Below are positions 3,554 through 60,009 of a DNA stretch of 64,000 nucleotides, piece by piece; within the stretch, counting starts at the first letter, position 1, and each line of letters starts with the position of its first letter. Where the stretch lies: NCBI GenBank assembly GCA_022821905.1, contig JAJECS010000015.1, positions 4,867 through 68,866 of the forward strand, read 5' to 3'. The position numbers and the translations under genes are program-made. This DNA comes from Chloroflexota bacterium (GTDB lineage: Bacteria > Chloroflexota > UBA11872). The notes under the pieces are model-generated. The model was not told where the DNA came from and did no database searches. It worked only from the letters and a program-made list of their open reading frames with translations.

Positions 3554-4654
3554 GTGATCGAAGTCATCGAGTCCGGTCTCGTCTACCGCAGCCCGGAGTC
3601 GCAGTCGCCGCCGTTGCACACGTGGCACCCGACGGCTGTCCTGCTCGATTCCGGCGAGCTGATCGCCGCTTTCGATATTGCCGATCATGCCGAGAGCCTG
3701 GACTACGCGACCTATATCGCCCGTTCGACCGATGAGGGGCGCACGTGGTCGGCGCCGACGCGCATGTTCCACGACTCCGTCCAGGGCCGGGTGACCAGCT
3801 TCGCGCGCATTGCCCGCGTGGGGCCGGGCGAGCTGATCGCGACCGGCGCCCGCGCCTACCGCCAGCCCGACGACGACAGCCTGGTCAATCGCGACACGTT
3901 GGGCTTTGTGCCGGTCGACCTGATCGTGCTGCGCAGCGCCGACGGCGGGCAAACATGGAGCGGCCCGGAGACCATCAAGCCGCCCCTGGAGGGGCCTTCA
4001 TTCGAGATCTGCCACACGGTGATCGTGCTGCGCGACGGACGCTGGCTGTGGCCGACGGCCACCTGGAAGGGCTGGGACGGCGACGCGCCAAACGGCATGA
4101 AGGCCATCGCGCTCGTCTCGTTCGACCGCGGTGCGTCGTGGCCAACCTATCTCGATGTCTTGGATCAATACGACCGCCACGTGCTCTCGTGGGAACAATC
4201 CGTCGTGGAGCTTCCCGACGCCCGTCTCTTGCAGGTCGCATGGGCATACGACGAAACCTCGGGACACAGCGAACCGACGCCGTACGTCATCTCGTCCGAC
4301 GGCTGGAAGTTCTCGGAGCCACGGGCCACGGGCTTGCGGGGGCAAACCACCAAATTGCACGTGTTGGCGGACGGCACGGTGCTGGTGCTCTACCGGCGCG
4401 ACAACCGTCCCGGGCTTTGGGCCCAGCGGGTTCGTATCGATGGCGAAATGTGGACCAACCTGGAAGACCTGGCCGTTTGGCAAGGCGCACCGTCGGGGAT
4501 GGCGGGCGAGGGCGCCGGCGCGGACGAGTTGGTGGACCTGCAGTTCGGCTTTCCACAGATGCTCTCGTTGCCGAACGGCGACGTGTTCGCGCTCTTCTGG
4601 TGCCAGGAAGACGGCATCCGCAACATCCGCTGGTTCCGCCTTCGGGTCACCTAG
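3554..4654 (+). CDS. BNR/Asp-box repeat sialidase-fold beta-propeller protein, subfamily A paralog 1
   Basis: Asp-box motifs STDEGRTWS, SADGGQTWS, SFDRGASW; GTG start at 3554 with GGAGA 6 nt upstream; paralog of 52143..53246 (shared C-terminus NIRWFRLRVT / NIRWYRLRVS); no canonical sialidase RIP motif. Confidence 0.75.
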   Translation: MIEVIESGLVYRSPESQSPPLHTWHPTAVLLDSGELIAAFDIADHAESLDYATYIARSTDEGRTWSAPTRMFHDSVQGRVTSFARIARVGPGELIATGARAYRQPDDDSLVNRDTLGFVPVDLIVLRSADGGQTWSGPETIKPPLEGPSFEICHTVIVLRDGRWLWPTATWKGWDGDAPNGMKAIALVSFDRGASWPTYLDVLDQYDRHVLSWEQSVVELPDARLLQVAWAYDETSGHSEPTPYVISSDGWKFSEPRATGLRGQTTKLHVLADGTVLVLYRRDNRPGLWAQRVRIDGEMWTNLEDLAVWQGAPSGMAGEGAGADELVDLQFGFPQMLSLPNGDVFALFWCQEDGIRNIRWFRLRVT

Positions 4655-4738
4655 TCCAGGCCCGCAGTCGGCTTACGGCTTTGGCCGATTAGGCCATCCC
4701 AGCAAACCCGCTGGTGCCGGCAACCGCGCGGTCAATCG

Positions 4739-6835
4739 TCACGCCAGGTGCACCACTGCGTGCTTCCAGGCCGGGATCGTGATCTCGAACGCGCCGTCGG
4801 TGAGCGGAAGCTCAGCCTTTGTGAGCAAGTTGCGCGCGGAATTGGGGAAGCGCCTGGGGCGAACGGTGACAGTGGCGGTGGCGCGCTCGAGGTTGAAGAG
4901 AAACGCCACCTCTCCGTCCTTTGCCGATCCGCGCACCACCGGCACGACGCCCGAGCCATCGATCGTCAACGGCGATTCGATGGAAGCTGCCCGGACGGGT
5001 GGGAGCACCAGGTCCGGGTGGCCGGCGTCGCCGAAGCCGGCTGACAGCGACAGCCCCCACCAGGTGAACCGACCGTCGGCGCTGCGCACGGCCACCGTTT
5101 CGCCCTCGAGCGAGGCAATGGCGGTTGCGCCGTTCTTGGGCTCGAGGACGGCGTAGCCGCAGGGAGTGCTGATCGGAATGGCCCCGGCAGGCGCCTGGAG
5201 CACGTTGCGGCCATCCGCAATGTCGCCCTCGGTGATGGCGTTGAAGTCCGCCACTCGCACGCCAAACCGCTCGGAGAACCCCTCCGGCGGGCCGTAGGAC
5301 GATTGCCCGTCGGCTGAATACAACCCAAAGCTCCCATCCGCCACCAATTGCACATCCGGATTTGCGTCGAGCGTTTTCTCGATGCGTTGGCGCAGCTCAT
5401 CGGTCATGAGCGCCGCGTTGGTCAGGAAGATCAGGCGGTAGGGGGACCAGTCCATGCCGGGCGACACGATGTCGACCGGAATGCCGTTGGCCCAGAGCGC
5501 GCGATGGACGCCGCGCAGGTCGTCCAGATAGCGGTCGTCCTCGTCGTTATAGCTGAATAGCTCCTGGGACTCGGACTGATAGACGACGGCCACGTCAGCG
5601 GTGTCGCACGTGAGCGGCAGGTGGTCCTCCATGCCGGCCATCTGGCACAGCGCCTCGATGGTGGATTGCCAGCGGGCGGTGGGCTGCCCGTCCAGGGCGA
5701 TCAGGTTGTAGCCCGGAGACTCGAAGCTGAAGTACTCGGGGCGATACTGCCAATACATGGCGCCCGCGCCGCCCGCGGCCAGGCACATCCACAGCAGCAT
5801 GGTGGGTTCCTCGGGCGCCGACTGCTTGCGCCAGGTGACGCCGCCGCCTGACATGCCCGAGTAGATTTCTTCGTTCCACCAGCGACCGTTCTTGCCGATG
5901 CTGCGTGACCAGTCGTAGCCGAAGGCCCGCTCTGACAGCTTGTAGGGGTCTTCGGAGGTCAGGAGGTTGTTGGACGACATGGACATGCCCCAGCTGTCGG
6001 CGACCGGCGCGCAGGCGGTGTCCTGCGGGCGTGGATACCAGGCGCCGTGTGAGCGCTTCTCGTGCACCGGATCCACGTCATTGGCGATGTCCATGACCCA
6101 CTGGAGATGGCCGGCCAGGTTCTCGTAGTGGAACTGCTTGTACAGCAGCATCTCCACGACGTTTTGGTTGGAGCGCGGCGGCTGCACATCTTCCCAGCGG
6201 CGATAGCGACGGTGCACACGCGCGTTCAGCTCGTCGAGCGTGAAGCGCTCTTTCAGCCAGGCGTCGTAGCGCGCGAGGGTGCTCGGGCAGTAGCAAGGCA
6301 GGCCATCGGAGGTCTTGCTCCAGGCGGCCGATAACGCGATGCCGTCCCAAAGGCCCCACACCAGCAGGGCCGGATGGTCCTTGTAACGCCCGATCATGTG
6401 ACGCAGGAGCTTCTCACCATATTCGCGCCACGCCGGATGGTCGTAGCAGTGAATCTGGCTGCCCTGCGGGTAGGCGGGGCTGGCGCTGGTGAGGGAGACG
6501 TGGTTGCGGTAGCTGACCACGCGCATGTCGGGATGCTCGCGCGTCAGCCACTCCGGGCAGGCGCCGTGCGTGGCCAGCGGCAGGTCGAGCCACATCCGCA
6601 AGTCGTGCTTGTGCGCCAGATCGAAGAGCAGGTCGACGTCGTCGGTCTCGTAGATGCCCGGGCGCGGCTCGAGATGGTTCCAATAGTTGAACGTGCGAAT
6701 GATGCGCATGCCACCGGCACGGATGCGGGCGAAGTCCTCGTCCCACAGCTCCGGCTTGGGAACCGGCGCACGGTAGTACTCCACGCCTACCGGAAACGGA
6801 ACGCCGGGGATGCCGAATTGGTTATTGCTAGACAC
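4739..6835 (-). CDS. Glycoside hydrolase family 42-like (beta-galactosidase-like), paralog 1
   Basis: 698 aa; N-terminal TIM-barrel segment YYRAPVPKPELWDEDFARIRAGGMRIIR...NYWNHLEPRPGIYE; CxC cluster (LPCYCPSTLARY) like the GH42 zinc site; GTG start with AGGGGG SD. Confidence 0.8.
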   Translation of the reverse strand: MSSNNQFGIPGVPFPVGVEYYRAPVPKPELWDEDFARIRAGGMRIIRTFNYWNHLEPRPGIYETDDVDLLFDLAHKHDLRMWLDLPLATHGACPEWLTREHPDMRVVSYRNHVSLTSASPAYPQGSQIHCYDHPAWREYGEKLLRHMIGRYKDHPALLVWGLWDGIALSAAWSKTSDGLPCYCPSTLARYDAWLKERFTLDELNARVHRRYRRWEDVQPPRSNQNVVEMLLYKQFHYENLAGHLQWVMDIANDVDPVHEKRSHGAWYPRPQDTACAPVADSWGMSMSSNNLLTSEDPYKLSERAFGYDWSRSIGKNGRWWNEEIYSGMSGGGVTWRKQSAPEEPTMLLWMCLAAGGAGAMYWQYRPEYFSFESPGYNLIALDGQPTARWQSTIEALCQMAGMEDHLPLTCDTADVAVVYQSESQELFSYNDEDDRYLDDLRGVHRALWANGIPVDIVSPGMDWSPYRLIFLTNAALMTDELRQRIEKTLDANPDVQLVADGSFGLYSADGQSSYGPPEGFSERFGVRVADFNAITEGDIADGRNVLQAPAGAIPISTPCGYAVLEPKNGATAIASLEGETVAVRSADGRFTWWGLSLSAGFGDAGHPDLVLPPVRAASIESPLTIDGSGVVPVVRGSAKDGEVAFLFNLERATATVTVRPRRFPNSARNLLTKAELPLTDGAFEITIPAWKHAVVHLA

Positions 6836-8656: not shown

Positions 8657-8938
8657 TCCCCTTTTTGTTGGAAGACGTGGTTGCCTCGTGCGCCCTTCGA
8701 CTAGCTGTACTGACCACAGAGGTGTGAGACACGGCTGACGGGCGGGAGGCTGATCAGTCCTATGAATGTCTGCATCGAGCGCGTCTCCAATCCGAGCATT
8801 CCCCAACGAGTCGATTTTGGCGCCGGCGTATCTGGCTTCTGGACCAGGTGACCGGCTGGCGGAAGGACGGCGTGCTGTCGGCGGCTGCCCGATTCGAGCA
8901 ACGTGCATGCGCGATTCGCGCCGCATACATTGGCGTCC

Positions 8939-10216
8939 ATGCGGCGGCCAAACATCCTGATCGTCACTACTCACGATACGGGTCGGTTCATCGAGCCCTA
9001 CGGCGTTGCCACCGTCGAGACGCCGAACTTGAGTCGTCTGGCAGCTGAAGGCATTCGGTTCAACGCCTACACCACGGCGCCGCAGTGCTCGCCGAGCCGG
9101 GCGAGCCTGACGACCGGCCGCTATCCGCACGCCAACGGCGTCATGGGGCTCACCCACGGAGAGCATCGCTGGGACCTGCATCCCAATGAGCGCACCATTC
9201 CGCAGACTCTGCGCACGGCCGGCTATCGCAGCGGCCACTGGGGAGTGGAGCACGCCGCGCGCGATCCCCAGCGCATCGGCAACGACTGCTACGACAACGT
9301 TTGTGATATCGAATCGATGGTTGCCGGTGTTTCCGCGTTCATCGAAGCCGAACCCGACCAGCCCTTCGTGGTCCAGATTGGCCTCACCGAGACTCACCGT
9401 GTGAGCGATCACGGCTTTGGCGGCTCGCCGTTCGATGCCAGGGGGATCACCGTGCCCGCCTATCTGCCGGATGCGCCAGACACGCGTGCCGACCTGGCCG
9501 ACTTTCAGGGGTGCGTCAATCGAGCCGACGCGTATGTCGGCCGGTTCGTCAGGGTGCTGGAAGAGCGCGAGTTGCTGGATGAGACGCTGGTGCTCTTCGT
9601 GAGCGACCACGGCATCGCCTTTCCCCGTGCCAAGTGCACCCTCTACGACCCGGGCGTCGAAATCTCGCTGATCGCGCGGCTGCCGGGGTCTCCGCTGAGC
9701 GGTGGGGCTGCTCCACCGGGCATGGCCGGCATCATGGACATCGTGCCAACGCTGATCGATCTGACGGGCGCCGAGGCCCCCGCCGGTCTGCACGGCGCCT
9801 CATTGCTGCCGCTGGCCGCGGGCGCGTCGCCGGGTCACGCCGAGATGTTTGTCGAGAAGACTTATCACAGCTACTACGACCCCATGCGCGGCATTCGAAC
9901 CGACGACTGGAAGTACATCCGCAATTTCGAGGCCGGGCTGGGTGTGGAGGTGCCGGCTGACGTTGCGGGAGGTGGCGCCTATCGCGATCTGGCTGGCCGG
10001 CTGGAACCGGCGGTGCACGCGCCTGCCGAGCTGTACGACTTGCGGTCCGATCCTGGTGAATGGACCAACCTGGCCGGCCGCCCGGAGTATGCAAGCGTTG
10101 AGTCCGAGCTGGAGGCCAAGCTGGCGAAATGGATGCGCGAGACTGGCGATCCACTGCTGGACGGGCCGGTGGCGTCGCCCTTCTATCGCAGGGCGATGCA
10201 CGGACTGTTGCAGTAG
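8939..10216 (+). CDS. Sulfatase (formylglycine-dependent arylsulfatase family)
   Basis: Signature C-x-P-S-R (CSPSRASLTTGRYPH) and sulfatase N-terminal block ILIVTTHD; start at internal ATG 8939. Confidence 0.85.
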   Translation: MRRPNILIVTTHDTGRFIEPYGVATVETPNLSRLAAEGIRFNAYTTAPQCSPSRASLTTGRYPHANGVMGLTHGEHRWDLHPNERTIPQTLRTAGYRSGHWGVEHAARDPQRIGNDCYDNVCDIESMVAGVSAFIEAEPDQPFVVQIGLTETHRVSDHGFGGSPFDARGITVPAYLPDAPDTRADLADFQGCVNRADAYVGRFVRVLEERELLDETLVLFVSDHGIAFPRAKCTLYDPGVEISLIARLPGSPLSGGAAPPGMAGIMDIVPTLIDLTGAEAPAGLHGASLLPLAAGASPGHAEMFVEKTYHSYYDPMRGIRTDDWKYIRNFEAGLGVEVPADVAGGGAYRDLAGRLEPAVHAPAELYDLRSDPGEWTNLAGRPEYASVESELEAKLAKWMRETGDPLLDGPVASPFYRRAMHGLLQ

Positions 10217-15940: not shown

Positions 15941-16378
15941 TCAGGACGACGAGTGGTTGTTGAGCGGCCGGCGCGCTGCGTCCACGAACTCGCGCCAGCC
16001 GCTGTCTTCCCACTCGCGTCGGCGCTCATTGATTCCCTCGATGAGGGTCTCGCGCGTGAATTCGTCGGCGACCAGGCGTGTGGATTCGATATAGCGCACG
16101 AGGCGGTCGAGCTCGCGGCCGACAGATGTACGGGCCAGATCCGTCGCAGCCTCGATTTCAACCCGCGCGTCAGGCGCTTGCCGCAGCTTTTCCGCGCGCT
16201 TGCGGTACTTCTCAATCCACGGGAGCGGCACTTCACCCTCGTTGACGATGAGCTCGGCGAAACGGTGCCGCTCTTCGATTTGGCTTGCCGCCCGCCGAAT
16301 CATCCACAGGGCCCATAGGACCACTCCCGTGCAAACAAGGGCAATGAGCAAGGTAAGCGGGATTATCAGCTGAAGCAT
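15941..16378 (-). CDS. Hypothetical membrane-anchored, highly charged helical protein
   Basis: N-terminal TM (LQLIIPLTLLIALVCTGVVLWALWMI), then a charged helical region; protein-like composition; lies between the ABC ATPase and the isomerase in the same operon. Confidence 0.5.
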   Translation of the reverse strand: MLQLIIPLTLLIALVCTGVVLWALWMIRRAASQIEERHRFAELIVNEGEVPLPWIEKYRKRAEKLRQAPDARVEIEAATDLARTSVGRELDRLVRYIESTRLVADEFTRETLIEGINERRREWEDSGWREFVDAARRPLNNHSSS

Positions 16379-16452
16379 TGATGCCGACTAAGCCTGCCGC
16401 CTGCCTACTACCCCCTGCCGACCCTGCGTGCCGGGTGGCCGGGCAGGCAGAC

Positions 16453-17529
16453 TCAAGCGGTTACGCCGTGAAGATCAAGCTCCTCGGCAAAGTGGCAGGC
16501 GGCTTCGTGCCCTTCGCCAACCACGCGCAATTCCGGAGTTTCCTCGCGGCAGCGGTCCTGGGCATAGCGGCAGCGCGGGTGGAAATAGCATCCGCTCGGC
16601 GGGTCCGCCGGGTCGGCGACCTCGCCCTCGAGCGTGATCTCCTCGAGCTTCCGCTTGGGGTCGGGCAACGGCACCGCGGACATCAGAGCCTCGGTGTACG
16701 GGTGCTTCGGGTTGCTGAAGAGCTCCTCGGTTGAAGCGTGCTCAACGACCTTGCCGACGTACATCACCGCCACTTCGTCGGAGATGTGCTCGACGACGCT
16801 CAGGTCGTGCGCGATGAACAGGTAGGCGATGCCGAACTCTTCCTGCAACTCTTCCAACAGGTTGATGATCTGCGCCTGCACCGAGACGTCGAGCGCCGAG
16901 ACGGCTTCGTCGCAGATGATGACCTTCGGGTTCAAGGCCAGGGCGCGAGCAATGCCGATGCGCTGGCGTTGTCCGCCACTGAACGCGTGCGGGTATCGCT
17001 TGAGATAGCGAATGTCCAGGCCCACAACCTCAAGCAACTCGCTCACGCGAGTCTCGAGCTCTCGCCCGCGCGCCACGTTGTGAATCCGCAGCGGCTCGCC
17101 GACGATGTCCAGCACTGTCTTGCGAGGGTCGAGGCTGGAATACGGGTCCTGGAACACCATTTGCAGGTTGCGCCGGTATTCGCGCAACTCGCGGGAGCCA
17201 AGCTCCGTCAGCTCAGTATCTTCGTTGTCGACGTGCATACGCACGCTGCCGTCGGTGGGCTCGATCGCGCGCACGACGCAGCGGCCAAGGGTAGTCTTTC
17301 CGCACCCCGATTCGCCCACGAGCCCGAGGGTCTTGCCTTCGGCGATCGACAGGCTGACGTCGTCAACCGCTCGCACGTAACCAACGACCCGCCGAAGCAA
17401 ACCCTTCTCGATGGGGAAGTATTTCTTGAGTCCCTCGATCTCGAGAATGGTGTTGCCGGCCTGCCCGTTGGCTGCCTCGACAGTCTCGGGTTGGGGCGCG
17501 TCGTCTTGCATGCCTTGCTCGCTACTCAT
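16453..17529 (-). CDS. ABC transporter ATP-binding protein (OppF/DppF-like)
   Basis: Walker [13 protein letters not shown] signature and Walker B; C-terminal oligopeptide-ABC extension. Confidence 0.85.
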
Positions 17530-18559
17530 AGAGCACACACCGTACGTGGTGGCCCGGCGACGTTTCGATCATCTTCGGCACGTCGGCGTCGCATCGGCCG
17601 GGGATGAACTTTGGACAGCGAGACGAGAAGCCGCACTCGGCCGGCGGATTGAGTGGCACGGGCACGGTACCGGCGATCGAGGTGAGGCGTTCGCCTCGCG
17701 TCAAACCGATCCGCGGAATCGATTGCATGAGCGCCTGGGTGTACGGGTGCTGGGGCTCACCGAAGATGGCTTCGACCGAGCCCTGCTCGACCACCCGGCC
17801 GAGGTACATGACGACCATTTGATCGGCCATGTTCGCAATCACGCCCAGGTTGTGCGTGATGAACATGATCGACATGCCCATTTCCTTTTGCAGGTCCTGC
17901 ATCAGCCGCAGAATCTGGGCCTGGATCGTCACGTCCAGAGCGGTCGTGGGCTCGTCGGCGATGAGCAGCTTGGGCCGCAGCACCAGCGCCATGGCGATCA
18001 TGGCGCGCTGCCGCATTCCGCCGGACAGCTCGTGCGGCAGCGCGTCGACGCGTCGCTCGGCCTCCGGAATGCCCACCTGGCTCAAGACTTCAATGGCGCG
18101 CTCACGGGCGGCCTGCTTCGGAACGTTCTCATGCACCAGGATGGCTTCCATGATCTGGTTGCCAACGCTGTGCACCGGCGAGAACGCCGTCATCGGCTCC
18201 TGGAAGATCATCGCGATGTCTCGCCCGCGGACGTCGCGGATTTCCCGGCCGGACGGATGGAGCGACGCGAGATCAACGGTTTCGCCGTTTCGCCGCAGCC
18301 AAATGTTGCCCTGCGTGTCGCCTGGCTTCGGCACGATGCGGAGAATCGACTGGCCGGTGACGCTCTTGCCGCAGCCGGACTCGCCGACGATCCCGAGCGT
18401 TTCATTGCGCCGAATGTTGAAGGACACGCCGTCGACGGCCTTCAGCGTCCCCTCCTCCAGCTCGAAGTAGGTTCGGACGTCGTTCAACTCGAGAATGACG
18501 TCCTCGTCCGTGGGCGCCGTTGATTCGGGCGCGGCGACAGTTGCTTGTTCTTCTGTCAT
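17522..18559 (-). CDS. ABC transporter ATP-binding protein (OppD/DppD-like)
   Basis: Walker [17 protein letters not shown] signature; overlaps the downstream ATPase. Confidence 0.85.
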
Positions 18560-18566
18560 GGCTTGC

Positions 18567-19706
18567 CTATCGATACGGGTCCGCGGCGTCCCGCAGACCG
18601 TCACCCAGGAAGTTGAAGAGCATCACGGCGATGATCACGAAGAGCCCCGGAATCATGAGCCAGGGGAAGACCGCGATCACGCTCACGTTTTGAGCGTCCT
18701 GCATGAGCGTGCCCCAGCTCACGGCGGGAGCGCGGATGCCCAGGCGCAGGAAGCTCAACGTCGTTTCGGCCAGGATCATGCTCGGCACCTGCAGTGTCAG
18801 GTGGACGATCAGGTAACTCATGAAGCCGGGCACGAGGTGGTCGAACAGCACGCGCATGTTGCCGGCGCCGGCCACTCGGGCCGCCATCACATAGTCGTTT
18901 TCGCGCAGCTCGAGGATCTTGCCGCGCACGACGCGCGCCAGGCCGGCCCAGCCGACCACCGAGAGCACGATGGTAATGGCGAAGTAGGTCTGCAACGGCG
19001 ACCAGGTGATGGGCACCGCGGCGCTCAGCGACATCCACAGCGGAATGGTGGGGACCGAGATCACGAACTCGATGAACCGCTGAATCAACAGGTCAACCGT
19101 GCCGCCGAAGTATCCGGAGATTCCTCCGATGATCACGCCCAGCACAAAGCTGAGGATCACACCAACCAGACCGATTGAGAGGCTGATGCGGGCCGCGGAA
19201 AGGGTGCGCGAGAACACATCGCGTCCCAGCTCATCGGTGCCGAAGAGGTGGATCGTGGCGCCCTCGACGCCGAAGAAATGCCGATCCCACTCGAAGAGGC
19301 CCCAGAACTTGTACGGAGCGCTCTGCGTGAAGAGGCCGATGGGATGAATCCGCTCCGGATCCTCAACAAAGGTTCGTTTGAACGACTGCGGATCGACGAT
19401 GGATTGCGTGCCATAGATGAAAGGCATCTGCCACGTGCCGCTCGCGTCGATCACATGAATGCGAGTCGGCGGCGAGGAAAGCTTGTCGTGCCGATCCGTG
19501 AAGTCGTAGGGGATCCAGAAGTCATAGGTGATGGCGAAGAAGTAGCCGAGGAGCAACAGAATGCCGCTGGCGTAGCCCAGGCGGTGGCGGCGGAACTTCC
19601 GCCACATGAGCTGCCACTGCGAAGCGACGTAATACTGCTCTTCTTCGGTGAACTCTCGGACTGATACGCCCGATCCTGTCGTCGGTTCGAGTGAAGTTGT
19701 AGCCAT
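18567..19706 (-). CDS. ABC transporter permease (OppC/DppC-like)
   Basis: Multi-TM BPD-transport permease; EAA-like loop. Confidence 0.8.
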   Translation of the reverse strand: MATTSLEPTTGSGVSVREFTEEEQYYVASQWQLMWRKFRRHRLGYASGILLLLGYFFAITYDFWIPYDFTDRHDKLSSPPTRIHVIDASGTWQMPFIYGTQSIVDPQSFKRTFVEDPERIHPIGLFTQSAPYKFWGLFEWDRHFFGVEGATIHLFGTDELGRDVFSRTLSAARISLSIGLVGVILSFVLGVIIGGISGYFGGTVDLLIQRFIEFVISVPTIPLWMSLSAAVPITWSPLQTYFAITIVLSVVGWAGLARVVRGKILELRENDYVMAARVAGAGNMRVLFDHLVPGFMSYLIVHLTLQVPSMILAETTLSFLRLGIRAPAVSWGTLMQDAQNVSVIAVFPWLMIPGLFVIIAVMLFNFLGDGLRDAADPYR

Positions 19707-19709
19707 GAG

Positions 19710-20720
19710 CTAGGCCGCCGCGGCGCGTTCTTGGCGAATCCGCGGATCCACCAGCGCCAATAGGATGTCGGAAAGGAACGTTCCGAAGATGACGAGCGCG
19801 CCTTCAACCATGACGATACTCCCGGCGAGGAACATGTCCTGAGCCCGGAGGGCCGTCAGCAAGACGGGTCCGGTCATCGGCAGACTGAGAACGATGGCGA
19901 CAATGGCGTTGCCGCCGAAGATGCCCGGCAGGATGTAGGCCGTGCTGCTCACGATCGGGTTGAGCGCCAGCCGCACCGGGTACTTGAACAGCAGCTTGCG
20001 CTCGGATACGCCGCGCGCACGGGCTGTGATCACGTATTGCTTGCCGAGCTCGTCGAGCAGCACCCCGCGCATCACCCGCATGGTCCCCGCCGTGCCGGCG
20101 GTGCCTAGCACCACGACGGGCACGATGAGGTGTTGCAACATGTCAATCACTTTTTCAATCGACCAGTCGGCAAGCGCGTATTCGGGCGAGAACAGCCCTC
20201 CAGCCGTGATGTCGAAGTATTTGAACAGCATGTACATCAAGAGCAATGCCAGCATGAAGTTTGGAACCGCCAACCCGATGAAGCCCACGGCGGTAAAGAA
20301 GTAGTCGCCGGGCCGATACTGATGGGTGGCGGAGTAAATGCCGATCGGGATGGCCACCGCAAAGGTGAATATGAGCGCCAATGTCGACAGAATGATCGTG
20401 AAGGGCAGAACCTCGGCGAGGATCTTGGTGACCGGCTGCTCGGCGGAGCGCCAGCTGCCGAATGACCGACCCAGGTCACCGACCACGAAACGTCCAGCCC
20501 AGTAGAAGTATTGCTCGATGGGCGTTCGGTCGAGGCCGTAATAGAGCTTGAGAGATTCAATCTCTTCGCGCTCGAGGAAGGTCCCGGCCTGCTCCTGGCC
20601 GGCGATGTAGTTGGTGAGGAAGTCGCCAGGCGGGAGCTGGATGACGATGAAAACGACCACGCTCAGCAGCCACCATCCGACGACCATGAATAGGAACCGT
20701 CGGACCAGATATGCCCTCAT
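19710..20720 (-). CDS. ABC transporter permease (OppB/DppB-like)
   Basis: Typical OppB N-terminus MRAYLVRRFLFMVV… and BPD permease pattern. Confidence 0.8.
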   Translation of the reverse strand: MRAYLVRRFLFMVVGWWLLSVVVFIVIQLPPGDFLTNYIAGQEQAGTFLEREEIESLKLYYGLDRTPIEQYFYWAGRFVVGDLGRSFGSWRSAEQPVTKILAEVLPFTIILSTLALIFTFAVAIPIGIYSATHQYRPGDYFFTAVGFIGLAVPNFMLALLLMYMLFKYFDITAGGLFSPEYALADWSIEKVIDMLQHLIVPVVVLGTAGTAGTMRVMRGVLLDELGKQYVITARARGVSERKLLFKYPVRLALNPIVSSTAYILPGIFGGNAIVAIVLSLPMTGPVLLTALRAQDMFLAGSIVMVEGALVIFGTFLSDILLALVDPRIRQERAAAA

Positions 20721-20878
20721 GCCTTGCGTCCCTCTCTGACGCCCAACCTCAACTCGCCAGCGTGGTCATCCGTCCGGTCAGGTCGTGGTGCCCGCTACCG
20801 TAGCGCAAACCCCACGACCGTTGCCACCGGGAGCCGCCGACCGGTTGGCCGGCGGCTCCCGGCGACCTTAGGTCGCGA

Positions 20879-29408: not shown

Positions 29409-29451
29409 TCGAAACCACCTTTGCGGCAAGCGGGCGGGACTTCCGGCCGCG

Positions 29452-34586: not shown

Positions 34587-34659
34587 GGTCATTGGTCGGG
34601 GCGGCATGCCGGTGTCACACTGCGCGCCGGATGTCGCGTCAAGGTTATCGGGGGCAGGC

Positions 34660-50710: not shown

Positions 50711-50723
50711 GATCCCAAATCGC

Positions 50724-50778
50724 CAGAATTCTCCGTTCGTGGTGAGCTTGTCGAACCACGTCCCATGAGAATTGACCG
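50724..50778. repeat. Intergenic element, copy 2; contains the same exact 26-nt core as copy 1 at 32640..32678
   Basis: CAGAATTCTC-CGTTCGTGGTGAGCTTGTCGAACCACG-…-GAGAATTGAC outer inverted repeat; the core lies 23 nt upstream of the - strand gene start at 50710 and the element spans the divergent region up to ~155 nt upstream of the LLM gene at 50933. Confidence 0.5.
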
Positions 50779-52142: not shown

Positions 52143-53246
52143 TCAGGAGACTCGCAGGCGGTACCAGCGGATGTTGTAGACCTCGCCCTCTTCGCACCAG
52201 AACGCCACATACACGTCGCCGTCGGGAAGCAGCGCCAGGCTCGGGAATCCGAACGGCAGGTCGACCAGCTCCTGCCCGCTGCTCTCCGTGGCGCCGGTCA
52301 TGCTGGACGATGCGCCTTCCCAGAGCGGCGCCTCGGCCAGATTGACCCAGTCGTCGCCGTCAAGGCGCGACAGGTTGGCCCAGAGGCCGGGCCGCCGGTC
52401 GTGACGGTAGACGAACAGGATGCGGTCGTCGGGGAGCACGAGCAGCTTGCCGGTCTGGCCGTGGATGCCGGTGGACCGCGGCTCGGAGAACGTATGACCA
52501 TCGGTTGAGATCGCATACGGATTGGGCTCCGTGAGCCCGGTGGCGGAGTCGAACGCCCAGGCGGTAGCCAGCAGCCGTCCGTCGCTCAGCTGCCGCAGCG
52601 AGACCTCCCACGAGAAGACGCCGCGGTAGGTCTCGTCGATCAGCACCAGGTGCTCGGGCCAGGTCCGGCCGCGGTCGTGGGACACGAATGCCAGCGCCAT
52701 GGCCCCGATCGGCTCCTCGCCGTCCCAGCCGCGCCAGGGGGCCATGGGCGCCAGCCAGCGCCCGTCGGCCAGCTCCACGATGTGGTGACAGACCTCCCAC
52801 GCCGGACTCCACACCGGGGCATCGAGGACCTCCGGCTTGCTCCAGGTGTGGCCGCGGTCGGAGCTGTGCGCGGTGACGATGTCCATCGGCGCATGACCGA
52901 GGTTCTCGCGATTGACGACCTGCCCGCCGTGGACGTCGCGGTAGGTGCGTCCACCGATGCCGACCAGGGTGCCGTCGCGCAGCGGGCTCACGCGGATGCC
53001 GCCGGTCGTCGGTCGGGTCGTGGAGGTTTCAACCAGCAGCTCGGGCGCCGACCAGGTCACGCCGCCGTCGGACGAGCGGGCCTTGTAGGTCTGATAGTCG
53101 AGTGCTTCCACGCCCGAGGCGAGATCGAAGCTGGCGAACAGCTCGCCGTCGTCGAGCACGACGATCGAGGGATGCCAGGCGTGGACGGCGCGACGCTCCG
53201 GTTCCGGATTTCGATAGACCAGGCCGGTGCCCAGCACGTCAATCAC
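52143..53246 (-). CDS. BNR/Asp-box sialidase-fold beta-propeller protein, subfamily A paralog 2
   Basis: SSDGGVTWS, SSDRGHTWS, SHDRGRTW; GTG start at 53246 aligned with the paralog-1 start (VIDVLGTGLVYRNP vs VIEVIESGLVYRSP). Confidence 0.75.
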   Translation of the reverse strand: MIDVLGTGLVYRNPEPERRAVHAWHPSIVVLDDGELFASFDLASGVEALDYQTYKARSSDGGVTWSAPELLVETSTTRPTTGGIRVSPLRDGTLVGIGGRTYRDVHGGQVVNRENLGHAPMDIVTAHSSDRGHTWSKPEVLDAPVWSPAWEVCHHIVELADGRWLAPMAPWRGWDGEEPIGAMALAFVSHDRGRTWPEHLVLIDETYRGVFSWEVSLRQLSDGRLLATAWAFDSATGLTEPNPYAISTDGHTFSEPRSTGIHGQTGKLLVLPDDRILFVYRHDRRPGLWANLSRLDGDDWVNLAEAPLWEGASSSMTGATESSGQELVDLPFGFPSLALLPDGDVYVAFWCEEGEVYNIRWYRLRVS

Positions 53247-53340
53247 GGGCAAGCTCCGGCTGCCATAATCCGGGCTGATTCGCGGTCGGATCGCCCGACG
53301 CGTGATTCGAGACCGCCCGACGGTGCTGAGGGAGCATGCG

Positions 53341-54684
53341 ATGCCTCCGGTCGAAGCCCTGGTGGATGCCCGCCGCAGCATAGAAGCCCGCTATCGCGCG
53401 CGCACGCCCGAATCGCGGGCGTTGCACGAGCGAGCGCTGCAGTCGCTGCCCGGCGGCGAGTCGCGCACCGCCACCTGGTTTGCGCCCTACCCGACCTATA
53501 TCGCCTCGGGCCTCGGTTCGACACTGACGGACGTTGACGGCAATCGGCTGGTGGACTTCACCTACAACTCCACTTCGGTCATCCATGGTCACGCCCATCC
53601 CGACATCGTGGCGGCCGTGCAGCGCCGCGTGGCCGAGGGCACCGCGTGGAACGCTCCGAATGCGGGCCAGGTCGAGCTGGCAGAACTCCTCTGCGCACGG
53701 GTGCCGTCGCTCGATCAGGTGCGCTTCAGCGCATCCGGCACTGAGGCGAACATGCATGCGATCAAGGCCGCGCGGGCATTCACCGATCGCGACCTGATCA
53801 TCAAGATGGACCTGGCCTATCACGGCACCTATGAGGGCGTGGAGATCCACCAGGGGGCGGATGGTTGGGGCGGTCCGGGATCGCCGGTGTCGCGGGGCGT
53901 GCCCAGCAACGCCGTCGACAACGTGCTAATCGCGCCATTCGACGACGCGGAGATCGTGGAGTGGCTGCTCGAAACCCACCCCGGGCAAGTTGCCGCCATC
54001 GTGGTCAACCCGGCCCAGACCCAGGGCGGACTGCGCGCGCCGTCGCCGGGCTATCTGAAGGCCCTGCGAGACGCCGCGGACGCACACGGCACGCTGCTGG
54101 TGTTCGACGAAGTCATCACCCTGCGCCTGGCGCGCGGCGGCGGCCAGGAATTGTTCGGCGTCCTGCCGGACCTGACGGCGATGGGCAAAATCATTGGCGG
54201 AGGACTGCCCGTTGGCGGCTTCGGCGGTCGGGCGGATGTGATGGACATCTTCGCCGACCGGCAGCCGCCGGTGCTGCCGCACGCGGGTACCTTCAACGGC
54301 AACCCGGCCACCATGGCCGCGGGCCTCGCGGCCATGCAGCTGCTCGATGCGCCGGCGTTCGAGCTTCTGGCAGAGCGTGGCGAGGCGCTTGGCAGGGGTT
54401 TGGTCGACGCATCGCACCGGGCCGGTGTCGCGCTGGATGTGACGCAAATCGAATCGGTGATCGGCGTCGACGTTCCGCTGGCCGGCGCGTCCGCGGGGGA
54501 GATCATTGATCTGATCGTCCTCGAGCTGCTGAACCGTGGCTTCAAGGCGGCATCCATGATGACGGTGTCTACGGCCACGACCAACGATGAGATTCAGGCG
54601 CTGGCCGAAGCGCTGGTGGAGGTGCTACGGCAGCTGCGCCCCGCCATTGCCGAGTCCGCGCCCGCGGCAGCGCCGACCACGTAG
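53341..54684 (+). CDS. Class III (omega-type) aminotransferase, GSA-aminomutase-like
   Basis: …FDEVITLRLARGG…MGKIIGGGLPVGGFGGRADVM… typical class III AT; GAGGGAG SD. Confidence 0.8.
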   Translation: MPPVEALVDARRSIEARYRARTPESRALHERALQSLPGGESRTATWFAPYPTYIASGLGSTLTDVDGNRLVDFTYNSTSVIHGHAHPDIVAAVQRRVAEGTAWNAPNAGQVELAELLCARVPSLDQVRFSASGTEANMHAIKAARAFTDRDLIIKMDLAYHGTYEGVEIHQGADGWGGPGSPVSRGVPSNAVDNVLIAPFDDAEIVEWLLETHPGQVAAIVVNPAQTQGGLRAPSPGYLKALRDAADAHGTLLVFDEVITLRLARGGGQELFGVLPDLTAMGKIIGGGLPVGGFGGRADVMDIFADRQPPVLPHAGTFNGNPATMAAGLAAMQLLDAPAFELLAERGEALGRGLVDASHRAGVALDVTQIESVIGVDVPLAGASAGEIIDLIVLELLNRGFKAASMMTVSTATTNDEIQALAEALVEVLRQLRPAIAESAPAAAPTT

Positions 54685-58055: not shown

Positions 58056-58853
58056 TTACGCGTCGCCCGATTGGGACCGCTGCATGAAGTCCGCGATGAG
58101 CCGCGCGACCTCGCGCGGGCACTCGAGCGGCAGCGAGTGCGAAACCCCTGCGAGCCAGCGCAGCTCGATGTTGTCACGCCGCGGGATGTGCAGTTGCTCG
58201 TGCGTCGCCGGCTCGCGCCCCCGGTCGCCGTAGAGTTCGAGGATCGGAAGTTCGGTCTGCTCCAGGACGTCGAAGCCGTCCCAGGTTTTCCAGATGGCGG
58301 CAAAATCGCGCTTCTGCCAGTCGGTCCAGCGGTGCAGGACCTCCTGGCGCAGTTGCTGGCGTCGCGCCACCTGCTCGGCGGACAGCGTGCTCATGGTGTC
58401 GTCGCTGAAGGCGTCGTGCTGGGCGTGGTGATTGGTCCAGCCCTCGATTGAGATCACGCCTTCCACGATCCACGGTCGCACCCGCGCGATCTCAATCGCG
58501 ATCATCCCGCCGATGCTGTGGCCGCCGACGAAGCACGTGCGCAGCCTGAGATGCGCGAGCACCCGCAGCACGTCCCGGGCGAACAGCTCAATGGATCCGT
58601 TCTCGGGCGGCGGCCAGCTGCCACCGTGGCCGCGGAGCTCAATGACCACCACGTGCGATTCCGCGCCAAGGTTGTCGACGATGTCCCCGAGCGCTCCCGC
58701 CGCGTTGAAGCTCCCCGGAATCAGGACCAGCGGCGGCCCGCGTCCGTCGCGGACGTGGAAAGCAATGGTGGCGCCCGGCGCCTGGATCGTGTGCTGGGCA
58801 AATGCCGTCCCCAGTCCCACGTCAGGGTCGCAATGATCGGCGTCAGGCCTCAC
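58056..58853 (-). CDS. Alpha/beta hydrolase fold protein
   Basis: Nucleophile elbow GHSIGG; start ambiguous (GTG 58853, 5 nt after the upstream stop, or ATG 58898 overlapping it). Confidence 0.6.
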   Translation of the reverse strand: MRPDADHCDPDVGLGTAFAQHTIQAPGATIAFHVRDGRGPPLVLIPGSFNAAGALGDIVDNLGAESHVVVIELRGHGGSWPPPENGSIELFARDVLRVLAHLRLRTCFVGGHSIGGMIAIEIARVRPWIVEGVISIEGWTNHHAQHDAFSDDTMSTLSAEQVARRQQLRQEVLHRWTDWQKRDFAAIWKTWDGFDVLEQTELPILELYGDRGREPATHEQLHIPRRDNIELRWLAGVSHSLPLECPREVARLIADFMQRSQSGDA

Positions 58854-60009
58854 GGTCTCGCTCCAGCGGCGGATTGCAGACGTCGTCGAGATCGGCAAGC
58901 CGCACCCGCAGCACCTCCACCGTCTGCTTGCCGCCGGCGAAGGCGATGAAGAGATGGCCGCCGTGCTCGATCACGTGCGGATAGTCCACCCAACGTCCGC
59001 CCACCAGATACGCCATTGTGTGAACCACCAGGCCGTCGTCGCTGATCGAAATCGCCAGCGGGTCGCGCGTGCTGGGGTTGGGGTTCGACACCAGCACGTA
59101 GCGACCGTCGGCCAGCCGCAGCCCGCTGAACTTGGACGTGGCGTCCGGAAAGTTCGTTCGAACCGGCCGTCTCCAGGTGCGCCCGCCGTCCGGCGAAATC
59201 GCGCGATAGAGGAATCCGCTGCGGCGACCGTCCCGAAACAGCGCCGCCAGTCGCCCATCGGGCAGCGTCCACCAATGCGGTTCCTCTGCCGACAGCTCGG
59301 TGTTCGATCCCAGCACGGGAACCGAGCTCCACCGGTCGATCGCCTCCTCGCCGCCCACCAGGAAGTCGACGCCGACCTCGCGGTAGTTGTGGCGGCGCCG
59401 GGACATCATCCATTGGCCGTCAGGCAGACGCTCCGGGGGGAAGTTGTTGATGGCGTCGCAGCAGACGATGCCCGCGGGTTTCCACGACTCGTCTTTCGGG
59501 TCGAGCCGAAACGCATGCAGCGCCAGGCTTGGGCCGAAGAATCCGGCTGCCTCGTCTAGGGACGCCAGGGCCAACAGCTCGCCGTCGCGCCGCCAGAATC
59601 CGCGCGAGATATAGCGCAGGCCTCGATCGGTGCGCTGGCCATACAGCGGCGAAGATGGACCGGATCCGGGCGGCTCCGGCGTGAGGTGCCCAGGGCTCGT
59701 CCATTGCAGTCCATCGGGGCTGGTGGCGAAGCTGACTCGCTGCCCCACGCGGTCCTCGATGCCGGGACCGTCGCTCCACATGAGCCAGAACTTCCCGCCG
59801 TGATGCGCCAGGTAGTTGTGCTGGTTGACACCGCCGCGGTCGCGGTCGAGGTCGCTGCCGTGGCGCGCATCGGCGCGCACGTCGCTGACGATGACGTGCT
59901 CCGACGGCACGCGCGGCAGCGAAGCAAAGTCGATCCGGTGCGAGTCATCGGGCACCCACGGACCCGCCAGCATGAGCGCCGGATCCAGACGCGCCACGTG
60001 CTCAGGCAT
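58843..60009 (-). CDS. BNR/Asp-box sialidase-fold beta-propeller protein, subfamily C
   Basis: SPDGGRTWR, SPDGLQWTS; ATG 60009 (MPEHVARLD…) overlapping the upstream gene stop. Confidence 0.7.
   Translation of the reverse strand: MPEHVARLDPALMLAGPWVPDDSHRIDFASLPRVPSEHVIVSDVRADARHGSDLDRDRGGVNQHNYLAHHGGKFWLMWSDGPGIEDRVGQRVSFATSPDGLQWTSPGHLTPEPPGSGPSSPLYGQRTDRGLRYISRGFWRRDGELLALASLDEAAGFFGPSLALHAFRLDPKDESWKPAGIVCCDAINNFPPERLPDGQWMMSRRRHNYREVGVDFLVGGEEAIDRWSSVPVLGSNTELSAEEPHWWTLPDGRLAALFRDGRRSGFLYRAISPDGGRTWRRPVRTNFPDATSKFSGLRLADGRYVLVSNPNPSTRDPLAISISDDGLVVHTMAYLVGGRWVDYPHVIEHGGHLFIAFAGGKQTVEVLRVRLADLDDVCNPPLERDREA

Follow-up and report, generated by a model that had tools for sequence, protein, structure and literature searches.

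The five BNR_2 proteins encoded in the window, as we call the whole 64,000-nucleotide stretch of DNA that was analysed, belong to three old, widespread families (A, B and C) of the six-bladed sialidase fold, and are intracellular here. From sequence and gene context we infer their most likely activity (hydrolase), substrate class and mechanism: in a joint reading, to which we would give an even chance of being right, the five are intracellular exo-acting glycoside hydrolases trimming oligosaccharides imported by Opp-type transporters, with families B and C releasing ulosonic acids.

A Pfam profile search placed all five open reading frames above the gathering score of BNR_2 (PF13088), 31.4 bits, which served as the threshold for the family call (Table 1). 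The division into three subfamilies proposed in an earlier note on this DNA was confirmed by pairwise BLASTP, with 49.6% identity between A1 and A2 (367 aa, E 2e-133), 36.8% between B1 and B2 (446 aa, E 2e-76), C standing apart, and matches of Asp-box size only in comparisons between families. Strict S-x-D-x-G-x-x-W boxes number three each in A1, A2, B1 and B2, and one in C. Homologue lengths in the databases (366, 445 and 374-388 aa) match the start codons first assigned to A, B and C; a Chloroflexi MAG 'sialidase family protein' is 93% identical to A1. At least 91% of family-conserved columns are kept in each window protein (A1 99/100, A2 91/100, B1 39/39, B2 38/39, C 176/178). The AF2 models of A1 (pLDDT 92.5; all-beta, six blades) and B1 (pLDDT 93.1) both had sialidase-type propellers as best fold matches: Foldseek ranked PDB 5hx0 first for A1 (TM 0.76) and a GH33 sialidase second, and GH33 sialidases were the top matches of B1, with TM values of 0.55-0.72 for GH33 sialidases against the two models.

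Table 1 Coordinates of the propeller genes and other features of the window
Feature	Position	Strand	Description and evidence
A1	3554..4654	+	Family A, sialidase-fold, 366 aa; BNR_2 53.4 bits
A2	52143..53246	-	Family A paralogue, 367 aa; BNR_2 61.7 bits
B1	30287..31624	+	Family B, sialidase-fold, 445 aa; BNR_2 77.9 bits
B2	38359..39651	+	Family B paralogue, 430 aa; BNR_2 57.9 bits
C	58843..60009	-	Family C, sialidase-fold, GH143-like, 388 aa; BNR_2 77.0 bits
Hydantoinase/oxoprolinase B (cut by window edge) and A	1..3503	-	Pfam
GH42-like protein	4739..6835	-	Pfam; NCBIfam match not found
Sulfatase	8903..10216	+	PF00884 117 bits; CSPSR formylglycine motif at residue 62; no signal peptide
PhyH-type Fe(II)/2-oxoglutarate dioxygenase	11053-12249	+	Pfam
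PhyH-type Fe(II)/2-oxoglutarate dioxygenase	12289-13194	-	Pfam
GFO/IDH/MocA oxidoreductase	13879-14970	-	Pfam; downstream of Opp operon
TIM barrel	14980-15828	-	Pfam; downstream of Opp operon
Opp-type ABC importer, whole	15941..23092	-	Pfam
Small membrane ORF of Opp group	15941-16387	-	Pfam
Opp ATPases	17522-18604, 16453-17538	-	Pfam
Opp permeases	19710-20720, 18567-19706	-	Pfam
Opp SBP5 lipoprotein	20879-23092	-	Twin-arginine and lipobox N-terminus (Tat-lipoprotein signal)
Second GH42-like protein	23497-25614	+	Pfam
Multi-Asp-box protein, double-propeller type	25674..27617	+	647 aa; directly downstream of second GH42-like protein
GHL10-like protein	27633-29582	-	Pfam
HpcH/HpaI-type class II pyruvate aldolase	29383..30270	+	PF03328 116 bits; 17 bp upstream of B1
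Xylose-isomerase-like TIM barrel (AP_endonuc_2)	31621..32604	+	PF01261 70.9 bits
Divergent DHDPS/NanA-family protein	34606..35571	+	PF00701 56 bits; class I pyruvate lyase or dehydratase type
PhyH-type Fe(II)/2-oxoglutarate dioxygenase near B2	36692..37474	-	Pfam
Second GFO/IDH/MocA oxidoreductase	40336..41349	+	Pfam; downstream of B2
Class III aminotransferase	53302..54684	+	PF00202 192.8 bits
Alpha/beta hydrolase	58056..58898	-	Pfam; downstream of C; start 58853 or 58898
FAD-dependent oxidoreductase	60002..61585	-	PF12831 334.8 bits

A motif search found (F/Y)RIP at the N-terminus of none of the five proteins, in agreement with the earlier view that they lack a canonical sialidase signature; the sole match to [FYWLIV]R[IVL]P was IRVP at residue 256 of B1, far from the N-terminus. 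No Arg occupies the FRIP position in families A, B and C, and family A is also without Arg2 and Tyr as judged by motif and blade position. These features argue against a role as ordinary GH33 exo-sialidases with Neu5Ac-type sialoglycans as substrates, as do the 13-18% identity of A1 and B1 to solved sialidases, the failure of all five proteins to reach any NCBIfam cut-off, the absence of a signal peptide or hydrophobic N-terminus from A1, A2, B1, B2 and C, and the lack of NanE/NanK-type genes in Pfam searches of the window. We consider this explanation very unlikely, despite the database names ('sialidase family protein / exo-alpha-sialidase'), the rank of GH33 sialidases among the fold matches and the presence of a DHDPS/NanA-family gene in the window. 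The reported abundance of GH33 annotations in sponge Chloroflexi (PMC6306507) also counts in its favour. Among homologues, a hydrophobic N-terminus occurs in 87/120 for C and in 23/120 for B, and family A was cytoplasmic in every case.

Families B and C are, on their profiles, sister families (hhalign probability 99%, E 2.8e-17, collinear), and because they are related at this level they do not count as independent. Common to both in the profile alignment are N-Q-H, E271/E243, R287/R259, R360/R315 and Y407/Y343 (B/C numbering). In the alignment of B with NanB at 'TAEAQMVELRDGVIRTFFR', E271 falls on chain position 503 and R287 on 519, which we take to be Glu541 and Arg557; in that of C with NanI, R259 falls on chain position 313 and R315 on 373, presumably Arg555 and Arg615. 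The candidate residues are kept in 113-121 of 121-122 homologues. Taken together, the alignments suggest that B and C keep the sialidase Glu, Arg2 and Arg3 and probably the candidate nucleophile Tyr. Arg1 is replaced in both by an N-x-H motif, and in B the Arg1 position is variable (Q, E, V, T or M). The assignments of R360, Y407 and D423 in B derive from the B/C profile alignment and from blade positions in predicted secondary structure, a PDB sequence match to this C-terminal part not having been found, and no conserved acid/base Asp was identifiable in B. As most of the sialidase catalytic set survives in B and C, the two families would represent a variation on a known kind of enzyme, not a wholly unknown one.

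In family A, Arg1, Arg2 and Tyr of the sialidase set appear to be lost: motif and blade position put Trp in place of both Arg1 and Arg2, and Phe/Tyr in place of Tyr, and only an Arg3-like R282 and the glutamates E151, E214 and E352 are retained. Because of this residue set, the catalytic arrangement and substrate of family A would probably differ from those of B and C; the pathway is probably of the same type, a DHDPS-like lyase being the most informative neighbour of family A. The family alignment contains 58 invariant columns, with Cys, His and Glu residues invariant within the narrow family; when distant relatives are included, the most persistent polar residues are E151 (57/77) and E214 (58/77), and conservation of C153, H154 and C350 is lost.

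The persistence of E151 and E214, together with the absence of Arg1, Arg2 and Tyr equivalents, would suit a family A, and possibly a family B, of neutral-sugar glycosidases with a Glu/Glu pair, the aldolases then serving parallel sugar-acid pathways. GH93 exo-alpha-L-1,5-arabinanase reuses a sialidase-like propeller with a Glu/Glu catalytic pair and is a possible analogy for the two glutamates; the N-terminal profile of B matches GH93 structure 3a71 (E 1.3e-7) in the Asp-box region, and GH78 and GH106 rhamnosidases and other neutral-sugar enzymes lie near some A loci. However, the family A profile matched no GH93 structure at E <= 0.01 and none was among the top 50 Foldseek matches, the close pairing of A with DHDPS genes in several phyla points to a keto-deoxy acid as product, and Arg2, Arg3 and probably Tyr are kept in B and C; we regard neutral-sugar activity as unlikely. 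It is also quite improbable, in our view, that family A is not a glycosidase but a propeller-based lactonase, hydratase, isomerase or lyase serving a non-phosphorylative sugar-acid pathway, perhaps with the help of a metal bound by E151, C153, H154, C350 and E352. Its neighbours do supply most components of an oxidative route for sugars (dehydrogenase, enolase-type dehydratase, aldolase, transporters), and its constant cytoplasmic location, the loss of the sialidase catalytic set and the Cys, His and Glu invariant in the narrow family are consistent with such a role, but C153, H154 and C350 vary in more distant relatives, locus L089 already has a gene for an ordinary SGL-type lactonase close to its family A gene, and sequence and fold put A among glycosidases.

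Several gene arrangements described in the earlier note were reproduced. B1 lies between the HpcH aldolase and the sugar isomerase-like TIM barrel, which it overlaps by 4 bp; A1 is divergent from hyuA (gap ~50 bp) and A2 from the class III aminotransferase (~55 bp). C overlaps the FAD oxidoreductase by 8 bp at its start, as claimed, whereas the 4-bp overlap given for the alpha/beta hydrolase was not recovered and is 11 bp (GTG 58853) or 56 bp (TTG 58898). The nearest NCBIfam models were 2-dehydro-3-deoxyglucarate aldolase (186 bits) and HpaI (175 bits) for the HpcH aldolase, both below their cut-offs, and KdgD, far below cut-off, for the DHDPS/NanA-family protein, whose IGIK motif may hold the active-site lysine. 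The protein described as an 11-Asp-box propeller indeed has 7 strict and 3 looser boxes by regular expression and one more, degenerate, by eye; it scored 98.4 bits with Pfam Sortilin-Vps10 and 64.8 bits with BNR, and 172.6 bits with the NCBIfam F510_1955 glycosylhydrolase model, slightly below the cut-off of 175.

Propellers with BNR/Asp boxes are also known from proteins that are not enzymes, among them Ycf48 and sortilin, and the match of the 11-box protein to those models would agree with a binding or scaffold role for the five proteins as non-catalytic propellers. That role is extremely unlikely, given the many charged residues away from the Asp boxes that do not vary between phyla (58 invariant columns in A), the 66-73% identity of C to more distant homologues from Verrucomicrobiota and other database sequences, the operon-style overlaps with enzyme genes, and the alignment of the B Glu and Arg with sialidase catalytic residues.

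Neighbourhoods were counted at 63 distant loci for family A and at 38 distant metagenome loci for family B. Recurring across phyla were DHDPS-like and HpcH aldolases, GFO/IDH/MocA and SDR dehydrogenases, Opp-type importers and additional A and B copies, which supports the proposed link to acidic-sugar catabolism. A GFO-like cluster, identified by its own sequence and by tblastn with the window GFO proteins, was the commonest neighbour of family A (20/63), with DHDPS-like genes at 10 loci, SDR-like at 9, HpcH-like at 8 and enolase-superfamily-like at 7. A DHDPS gene follows A in L013, L074, L089 and L090, and in L074, a Poribacteria MAG, the gene directly after A encodes a 57%-identical homologue of the window DHDPS/NanA-family protein; DHDPS genes are also near family C in L002 and L003. 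A homologue of the class III aminotransferase lies directly upstream of A in two MAGs labelled Brocadiaceae (L020, L022). The order BNR_2 then AP_endonuc_2 is repeated in L087 (family B) and L090 (family A, 4-bp overlap), and L070 and L095 each have B and then A on a single strand. Opp genes flank family B in 4/38 loci. In L086 the Opp orthologues (38-67% identity) form one operon with the B gene between two ATPase genes, and in L152 and L161 homologues of the small membrane ORF lie between an Opp ATPase and tandem B genes. In L085 the two genes immediately before B are PhyH genes, and a PhyH gene lies two genes downstream of C in L001.

Other partners named earlier fared less well. Linkage of the hyuAB genes to A is confined to the 8 closest Chloroflexota loci (L074 has hyuA by itself), the FAD oxidoreductase adjoins C only in close Chloroflexota relatives and not in L001-L003, the alpha/beta hydrolase beside C is conserved only in close relatives, and the sulfatase occurs near A only in close relatives and beside B in 2/38 loci. 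These genes and GH42, confined as partners to syntenic close Chloroflexota relatives, are absent at distant family C loci and rare at distant B loci (a FAD-oxidoreductase homologue in 1/38); named partners are missing from most loci, and neighbourhoods are heterogeneous. The idea that the whole 56 kb serves one pathway did not hold, as UvrD helicase, SRAP, GNAT, RHH and metal ABC permease genes, unrelated, also lie inside; the window consists of several small modules within a part of the genome given to sugar catabolism, and makes up neither a single operon nor a single pathway. It comes from a Chloroflexota MAG lineage and its synteny is common to relatives, in which the A1 and A2 orthologues are also ~48 kb apart.

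In the joint reading, Opp-type ABC importers would bring oligosaccharides into the cytoplasm, where the five propeller enzymes would trim them. B and C would act as retaining enzymes with a sialidase-like mechanism and set free 2-keto-3-deoxy (ulosonic) acid sugars, with family A acting on a probably different substrate, and the freed acids would pass to HpcH-type and DHDPS-type pyruvate aldolases/lyases and GFO/SDR dehydrogenases.

A characterised close homologue was found for none of the five proteins. The closest solved relative of family A is Dfer_1899 of Dyadobacter fermentans (PDB 5hx0), a structural-genomics protein for which a literature search found no paper; its profile match spans residues 7-306 (E 8.6e-14), but it is only 20% identical, with Phe in place of the His25 that is invariant in family A. 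GH33 sialidases (NanB, NanA, NanI and the M. viridifaciens enzyme) share the six-bladed propeller and Asp boxes with all three families, but the window proteins, besides the residue differences given above, are intracellular and have no sialic-acid kinase or epimerase genes nearby. Sialic-acid utilisation clusters combine a sialidase, NanA lyase, GFO-type NanOx/YjhC oxidoreductase and transporter, and families A and C similarly lie beside a DHDPS-family lyase, GFO/IDH/MocA oxidoreductase and SSS/MFS/ABC transporter; here, however, the propeller is cytoplasmic and non-canonical, the DHDPS member is divergent, and the set also includes HpcH aldolases and TIM-barrel isomerase-like proteins. Clustering with characterised enzymes, which the earlier note named as a refuting outcome, was seen in part: C clusters, distantly, with the GH143 domain of BT1020. 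Family A resembles only 5hx0. The N-terminus of BT1020, a large two-domain enzyme of RG-II degradation, is a GH143 DHA-hydrolase (PMC13501991). C matches this sialidase-type propeller (5mqr_A) in two collinear segments (E 9e-16 and 3e-13) that span only ~160 of its 388 residues, and the window proteins are single-domain; the B profile did not match 5mqr directly, family B being tied to it only through C. Both BT1020 and C are without Arg at the FRIP position (N-H-Q-P and N-Q-H-N, respectively), and the BT1020 Arg in '...EFRWPLAISLS' is aligned to R315 of C.

The five BNR/Asp-box ORFs singled out in the earlier note all exceed the Pfam BNR_2 (PF13088) gathering threshold of 31.4 bits (A1, 53.4; A2, 61.7; B1, 77.9; B2, 57.9; C, 77.0). 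Their division into three subfamilies was also upheld: A1 and A2 share 49.6% identity across the whole protein and B1 and B2 36.8%, and BLASTP between families A, B and C returned only matches the size of an Asp box. S-x-D-x-G boxes are present, the strict form S-x-D-x-G-x-x-W occurring three times each in A1, A2, B1 and B2 and once in C, and a regular expression search found an N-terminal (F/Y)RIP, the canonical FRIP signature, in none of the five (0/5). The protein described as an 11-Asp-box propeller corresponds to a 647-aa product with Sortilin-Vps10 and BNR matches. Gene order was as reported, except that C and the alpha/beta hydrolase gene overlap by 11 or 56 bp rather than 4 bp. The BNR_2 scores, identities, box counts and gene order therefore confirm the observation itself. 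The coordinates of these genes, and of other genes of interest in the window, are collected in the table.

Features of the window discussed in the text
Feature	Position	Strand	Remarks
A1, BNR family A	3554-4654	+	
Sulfatase	8903-10216	+	CSPSR formylglycine motif, no signal peptide
Small ORF, 148 aa	15941-16387	-	membrane helix at the N-terminus; without a Pfam match; immediately downstream of the genes for the Opp ATPases
SBP5 binding protein	20879-23092	-	
GH42-like gene, followed 60 bp on by the gene for the 647-aa multi-Asp-box protein	23497-27617	+	no clear signal peptide on the latter
647-aa multi-Asp-box protein	25674-27617		
B1, BNR family B	30287-31624	+	
Sizeable ORF	33228-34586	+	good third-position G+C
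Sizeable ORF	35604-36569	+	good third-position G+C
Sizeable ORF	37513-38253	+	good third-position G+C
B2, BNR family B	38359-39651	+	
Laminin_G_3 + DMFA2_C (dimethylformamidase-beta-like) protein, 775 aa, and PLP-dependent decarboxylase-like gene	41459-45011	+	the decarboxylase-like gene overlaps the end of the 775-aa protein
UvrD-like helicase, 989 aa	45138-48107	-	about 325 N-terminal residues without a Pfam match
Sizeable ORF	49464-50759	-	good third-position G+C
A2, BNR family A	52143-53246	-	
C, BNR family C	58843-60009	-	

AF2 models A1 (pLDDT 92.5) as an all-beta propeller of six blades; the best fold match is 5hx0, the structure of Dfer_1899, followed by GH33 enzymes. The family A profile matches 5hx0 over 300 residues with an E-value of 8.6e-14 (Foldseek E 2e-17, TM 0.76), and family A is a Dfer_1899-like propeller by full-length homology and shared fold, a placement that is uninformative on function. 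GH33 sialidases are also matched by the profiles of family A (E approximately 1e-9) and family B (approximately 3e-13), and GH33 structures align to the B1 AF2 model (pLDDT 93.1) at TM 0.55-0.61. The six-bladed propeller with Asp boxes that is expected of GH33 is thus present in A1 and B1, the two modelled proteins, which taken together score TM 0.55-0.72 against GH33. GH93 is not closer than GH33: no GH93 chain was found among the family A profile hits at E <= 0.01 or in the Foldseek top 50 for A1 or B1, and the sole GH93 match was of the B N-terminus to 3a71, in the Asp-box region. Profile-profile comparison identified B and C as sister families (probability 99%, E 2.8e-17) and related family A to B (98.7%) but not detectably to C. 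C matches BT1020 (PDB 5mqr) with E-values of 9e-16 as a single sequence and 3e-13 as a profile, in two collinear segments covering approximately 40% of the protein. The family B profile gave no direct hit to BT1020 at E <= 0.01 and is linked to it via C alone, and family A showed no match to the BT1020 N-terminal catalytic domain. Literature searches on Dfer_1899/5HX0, on PF13088/BNR_2 and on sialidase-like proteins in Planctomycetes or Chloroflexi found nothing relevant.

The first arginine of the sialidase triad, expected of a GH33 enzyme, is missing at the FRIP position in all three families. Further into family B, the segment AQEPxIQxLSDGRLxCVMRT aligns with NanB TAEAQMVELRDGVIRTFFRT, placing B1 E271 and R287 on chain positions 503 and 519, which we take, after the construct offset, to be Glu541 and Arg557, the tyrosine-partner glutamate and the second arginine. 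In family C, alignment with NanI puts R259 on chain position 313 and R315 on 373, presumably Arg555 and Arg615. The B/C profile alignment pairs B R360 with C R315, B Y407 with C Y343 and B E271 with C E243, and R360 is assigned as the third arginine of B solely through this alignment. On these alignments the second and third arginines of the triad appear to be present in C and largely so in B; judged by motif register and blade position, the pair appears not to be retained in A. The candidate tyrosine is conserved in 113 of 122 homologues of B (Y407) and in all 121 of C (Y343), in neither case by direct alignment to a sialidase, and the candidate catalytic residues of B and C as a whole are kept in 113-121 of 121-122 homologues. 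In blade 6 of the B1 model, Y407 immediately precedes the first strand and D423 is where the second one ends, which would be the sites where sialidases carry the nucleophile tyrosine and the last glutamate. The C-terminal third of family B gave no hit in the PDB even at an E-value of 10, and a search for a conserved acid/base aspartate in B found none. On the aligned residues, B and C appear to retain the glutamate and two of the three arginines, and probably the tyrosine.

Family A residues were placed by blade counting on the A1 model, by HMMER alignment to a Bacteroides sialidase and by motif register. The conserved E214 is placed on the first strand of blade 4, approximately 7 residues downstream of the column aligned with the sialidase glutamate; W230 is assigned to the position of the second arginine, and R281/R282 are placed near that of the third by motif register and blade position. 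Where sialidases have G-Y-S, family A has F331-G332-(F/Y)333-P334, with E352 at the last glutamate. At the tyrosine position, 85 homologues have F and 36 have Y, and this residue is variable in distant relatives, in which at least 90% conservation is confined to the Asp boxes, W230, W349 and F-G-x-P; R282, E151 and E214 are kept in roughly 75-90% of these relatives. An alternative register from hhalign of A against B, which puts R281 on the second arginine, was set aside because a position one blade earlier is favoured both by counting blades on the predicted secondary structure and by the HMMER alignment with the Bacteroides sialidase. This residue pattern indicates that most of the sialidase machinery has been lost from family A, which may work through two glutamates. 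A lactonase function, with family A supplying the missing lactonase of an oxidative sugar pathway, is a minor rival only, because an SGL lactonase is already present in one of the family A loci (L089) and the Cys and His residues of family A are not conserved more widely.

The closest homologues of the window proteins are from Chloroflexota MAGs, at 93-97% identity. In a scan of one genome per species, family A was present in 284 genomes, every one a MAG, from phyla including Chloroflexota, Planctomycetota, Latescibacterota, Gemmatimonadota, Verrucomicrobiota, Lentisphaeria, Armatimonadota, Poribacteria and Acidobacteriota; an exhaustive profile search gave 212 family A clusters at 50% identity with E <= 1e-30, and 977 with E <= 1e-10. 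Family C is the most conserved of the three, with 66-73% identity to more distant database homologues, Verrucomicrobiota included, and more than 1,700 hits, and family B is the smallest (138 word-indexed hits). Of the columns conserved to at least 95% within a family, each of the five window proteins retains 91-100%, and none looks decayed. A and B are often multiplied in tandem: one Chloroflexota genome, whose A is 66% identical, carries two A genes with DHDPS, an Opp operon in a Chloroflexia genome has three A-like genes next to it, and metagenome contigs hold runs of four to five B genes (tandem multiplication was noted at L013, L054, L152 and L161). Such copies suggest a suite of related specificities directed at a single complex substrate. 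Isolate names such as COS3_bin_17 and RHO3_bin_74 recur among the closest MAGs (L007, L009, L055, L059, L074), and carriers include Poribacteria and Latescibacterota; our guess is that several of the closest MAGs derive from marine-sponge symbiont material.

The genomic context of family A was assessed at 63 loci outside close relatives, with neighbours named from cluster sequences and by tblastn with the window proteins. The neighbours were a GFO/IDH/MocA-like oxidoreductase (20 loci), a DHDPS-like protein (10), an SDR-like protein (9), an HpcH-like aldolase (8), an enolase-superfamily-like dehydratase (7) and a 2-hydroxyacid-dehydrogenase-like protein (6), together with MFS-like or SSS-like transporters. 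A DHDPS gene directly follows A in Chloroflexota, Planctomycetota and Poribacteria, the Poribacteria copy being 57% identical to the window DHDPS-like protein. At one locus (L090) A is followed with a 4-bp overlap by an AP_endonuc_2 TIM barrel, and two MAGs labelled Brocadiaceae carry a class III aminotransferase gene upstream of A. Genes for hyuB, GH42 and sulfatase were found near A in close relatives only. A functional partnership of hyuAB with A1 was rejected: hyuB is confined to the 8 closest Chloroflexota loci, and hyuA to these and one Poribacteria locus (L074), where it lies approximately 5 kb off.

Family B was compared across 38 metagenome loci, none shorter than 6 kb. Tandem B paralogues, up to five copies, occur in 10 of these; an SDR-type gene follows B in 6, Opp genes flank it in 4, and A (2), sulfatase (2), HpcH with GFO (2) and an FAD-oxidoreductase homologue (1) are also found nearby. 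In L086 the B gene separates the two ATPase genes of an Opp operon, which encodes proteins with 38-67% identity to those of the window Opp system, PhyH dioxygenase genes are upstream of B in L085, and in a Paenibacillus genome B is followed by a BNR_2 + Laminin_G_3 protein and an AP_endonuc_2 protein. The order HpcH, B, TIM barrel was rejected as a conserved operon, as HpcH is present in only 2 of the 38 loci, approximately 5 kb away and on the opposite strand. No homologue of the window-type TIM protein was found in B loci by tblastn, yet AP_endonuc_2 follows BNR_2 in L087 and L090. Three distant C loci between them contain DHDPS, enolase-type dehydratase, 2-hydroxyacid dehydrogenase, PhyH, GFO and another BNR_2 gene; the FAD oxidoreductase and alpha/beta hydrolase are missing from all three and were rejected as family C partners.

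The window has a G+C content of approximately 67% throughout and approximately 50 genes by codon-position G+C scan and ORF list; tRNA and Rfam scans gave no matches. A1 and A2 orthologues are approximately 48 kb apart in several Chloroflexota MAGs, as they are here, which indicates that the layout is a lineage-wide synteny block. The proposal that the whole 56 kb serves one pathway was rejected, given the unrelated genes within the span and synteny common to close relatives only. The earlier reading is retained in part: acidic-glycan catabolism by uncharacterised enzymes is plausible, but the unity of the locus and the weight of lineage-specific neighbours were overstated. The window is a sugar-catabolic neighbourhood of separate modules, not one operon, and adds little beyond a clear side-by-side example of all three families.

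Several other window genes were characterised. The HpcH protein at 29383-30270 scores best against 2-dehydro-3-deoxyglucarate aldolase and HpaI, and the DHDPS-like protein at 34606-35571 against 5-dehydro-4-deoxyglucarate dehydratase, both far below equivalog cut-offs. The GH42-like gene and its multi-Asp-box neighbour look like an operon; the 647-aa product scores 172.6 bits against the NCBIfam F510_1955 family glycosylhydrolase, just under the 175-bit cut-off. No formylglycine-generating enzyme or anaerobic sulfatase-maturase domain was found among the window ORFs scanned. The Laminin_G_3/DMFA2_C and decarboxylase-like genes are retained beside A2 orthologues in related MAGs, and elsewhere B genes often precede BNR_2 + Laminin_G_3 proteins (L086, L087). 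None of the four sizeable ORFs in the table has a significant Pfam or NCBIfam match, 35604-36569 having only a sub-threshold match to VRR_NUC; three of them are interspersed with DHDPS-like and PhyH genes in the interval from B1 to B2. The helicase gene is in a stretch of lower G+C (0.63, with approximately 0.68 on either side).

Secretion was assessed with a crude hydrophobicity test on the N-termini of 120 homologues per family, which found a signal-peptide-like or lipoprotein-like start in 87 homologues of C, 23 of B and 2 of A. No such start is present in any of the five window proteins (0/5), and no upstream in-frame start adds one; the GH42-like proteins and the sulfatase also have no signals. 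A twin-arginine leader that includes a lipobox (SRRRMLAVTAGAAAVGVLAAC) is present on the SBP5 binding protein, along with a linker rich in Pro and Thr (Pfam PT repeat), which suggests that it is tethered on a long stalk. The 148-aa ORF may be an unrecognised accessory part of the importer; its homologues lie between Opp ATPase genes and tandem B genes in two metagenome loci (L152, L161). The overall picture would be one of import, then intracellular breakdown, and, judged from their sequences, the five proteins are probably intracellular enzymes of the sialidase fold whose active site is altered.

We propose that the five proteins would act as intracellular exo-hydrolases on oligosaccharides brought in by Opp-type systems, with B and C removing 2-keto-3-deoxy acid sugar residues and pyruvate aldolases or lyases and dehydrogenases taking their products; family A may be part of such a module too, using a different catalytic set. 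A more far-reaching reading, which we consider unlikely, is that families A, B and C, the Opp-type importer, a cytoplasmic sulfatase, PhyH dioxygenases and HpcH/DHDPS-like aldolases would form an undescribed route that imports first and dismantles inside, acting on sulfated, O-methylated polymers rich in 2-keto-sugar acids, with A a new glycoside hydrolase family or a non-hydrolase in which a different catalytic set replaces the arginine triad and tyrosine nucleophile. Should B and C prove to be hydrolases of the Kdo/Dha type, and A a new catalytic variant acting alongside a DHDPS-like lyase, the three families would represent a widespread, unstudied route of acidic-sugar turnover in marine and soil carbon cycling, and would offer new enzyme specificities for glycan analysis.

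All three families are annotated as 'sialidase' or 'exo-alpha-sialidase' in Chloroflexota, Planctomycetota, Verrucomicrobiota, Latescibacterota, Poribacteria and other phyla, so that some of the sialidases counted in uncultured heterotrophs, sponge symbionts among them, may be enzymes unable to bind sialic acid canonically. GH33 and GH74 annotations are abundant in sponge-associated Chloroflexi (PMC6306507), and proteins like A, B and C may account for part of these counts. The BT1020 N-terminal domain is a GH143 Dha-hydrolase of the RG-II degradation system (PMC13501991; 10.64898/2026.03.13.711244). The match of C to this domain, together with the residues retained in B and C, points to 2-keto-3-deoxy acid sugars as what these two families remove. 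At the FRIP position, family A has W24-H25-P26, family B N47-x-H49-F50 and family C N62-Q63-H64-N65, where BT1020 has N-H-Q-P.
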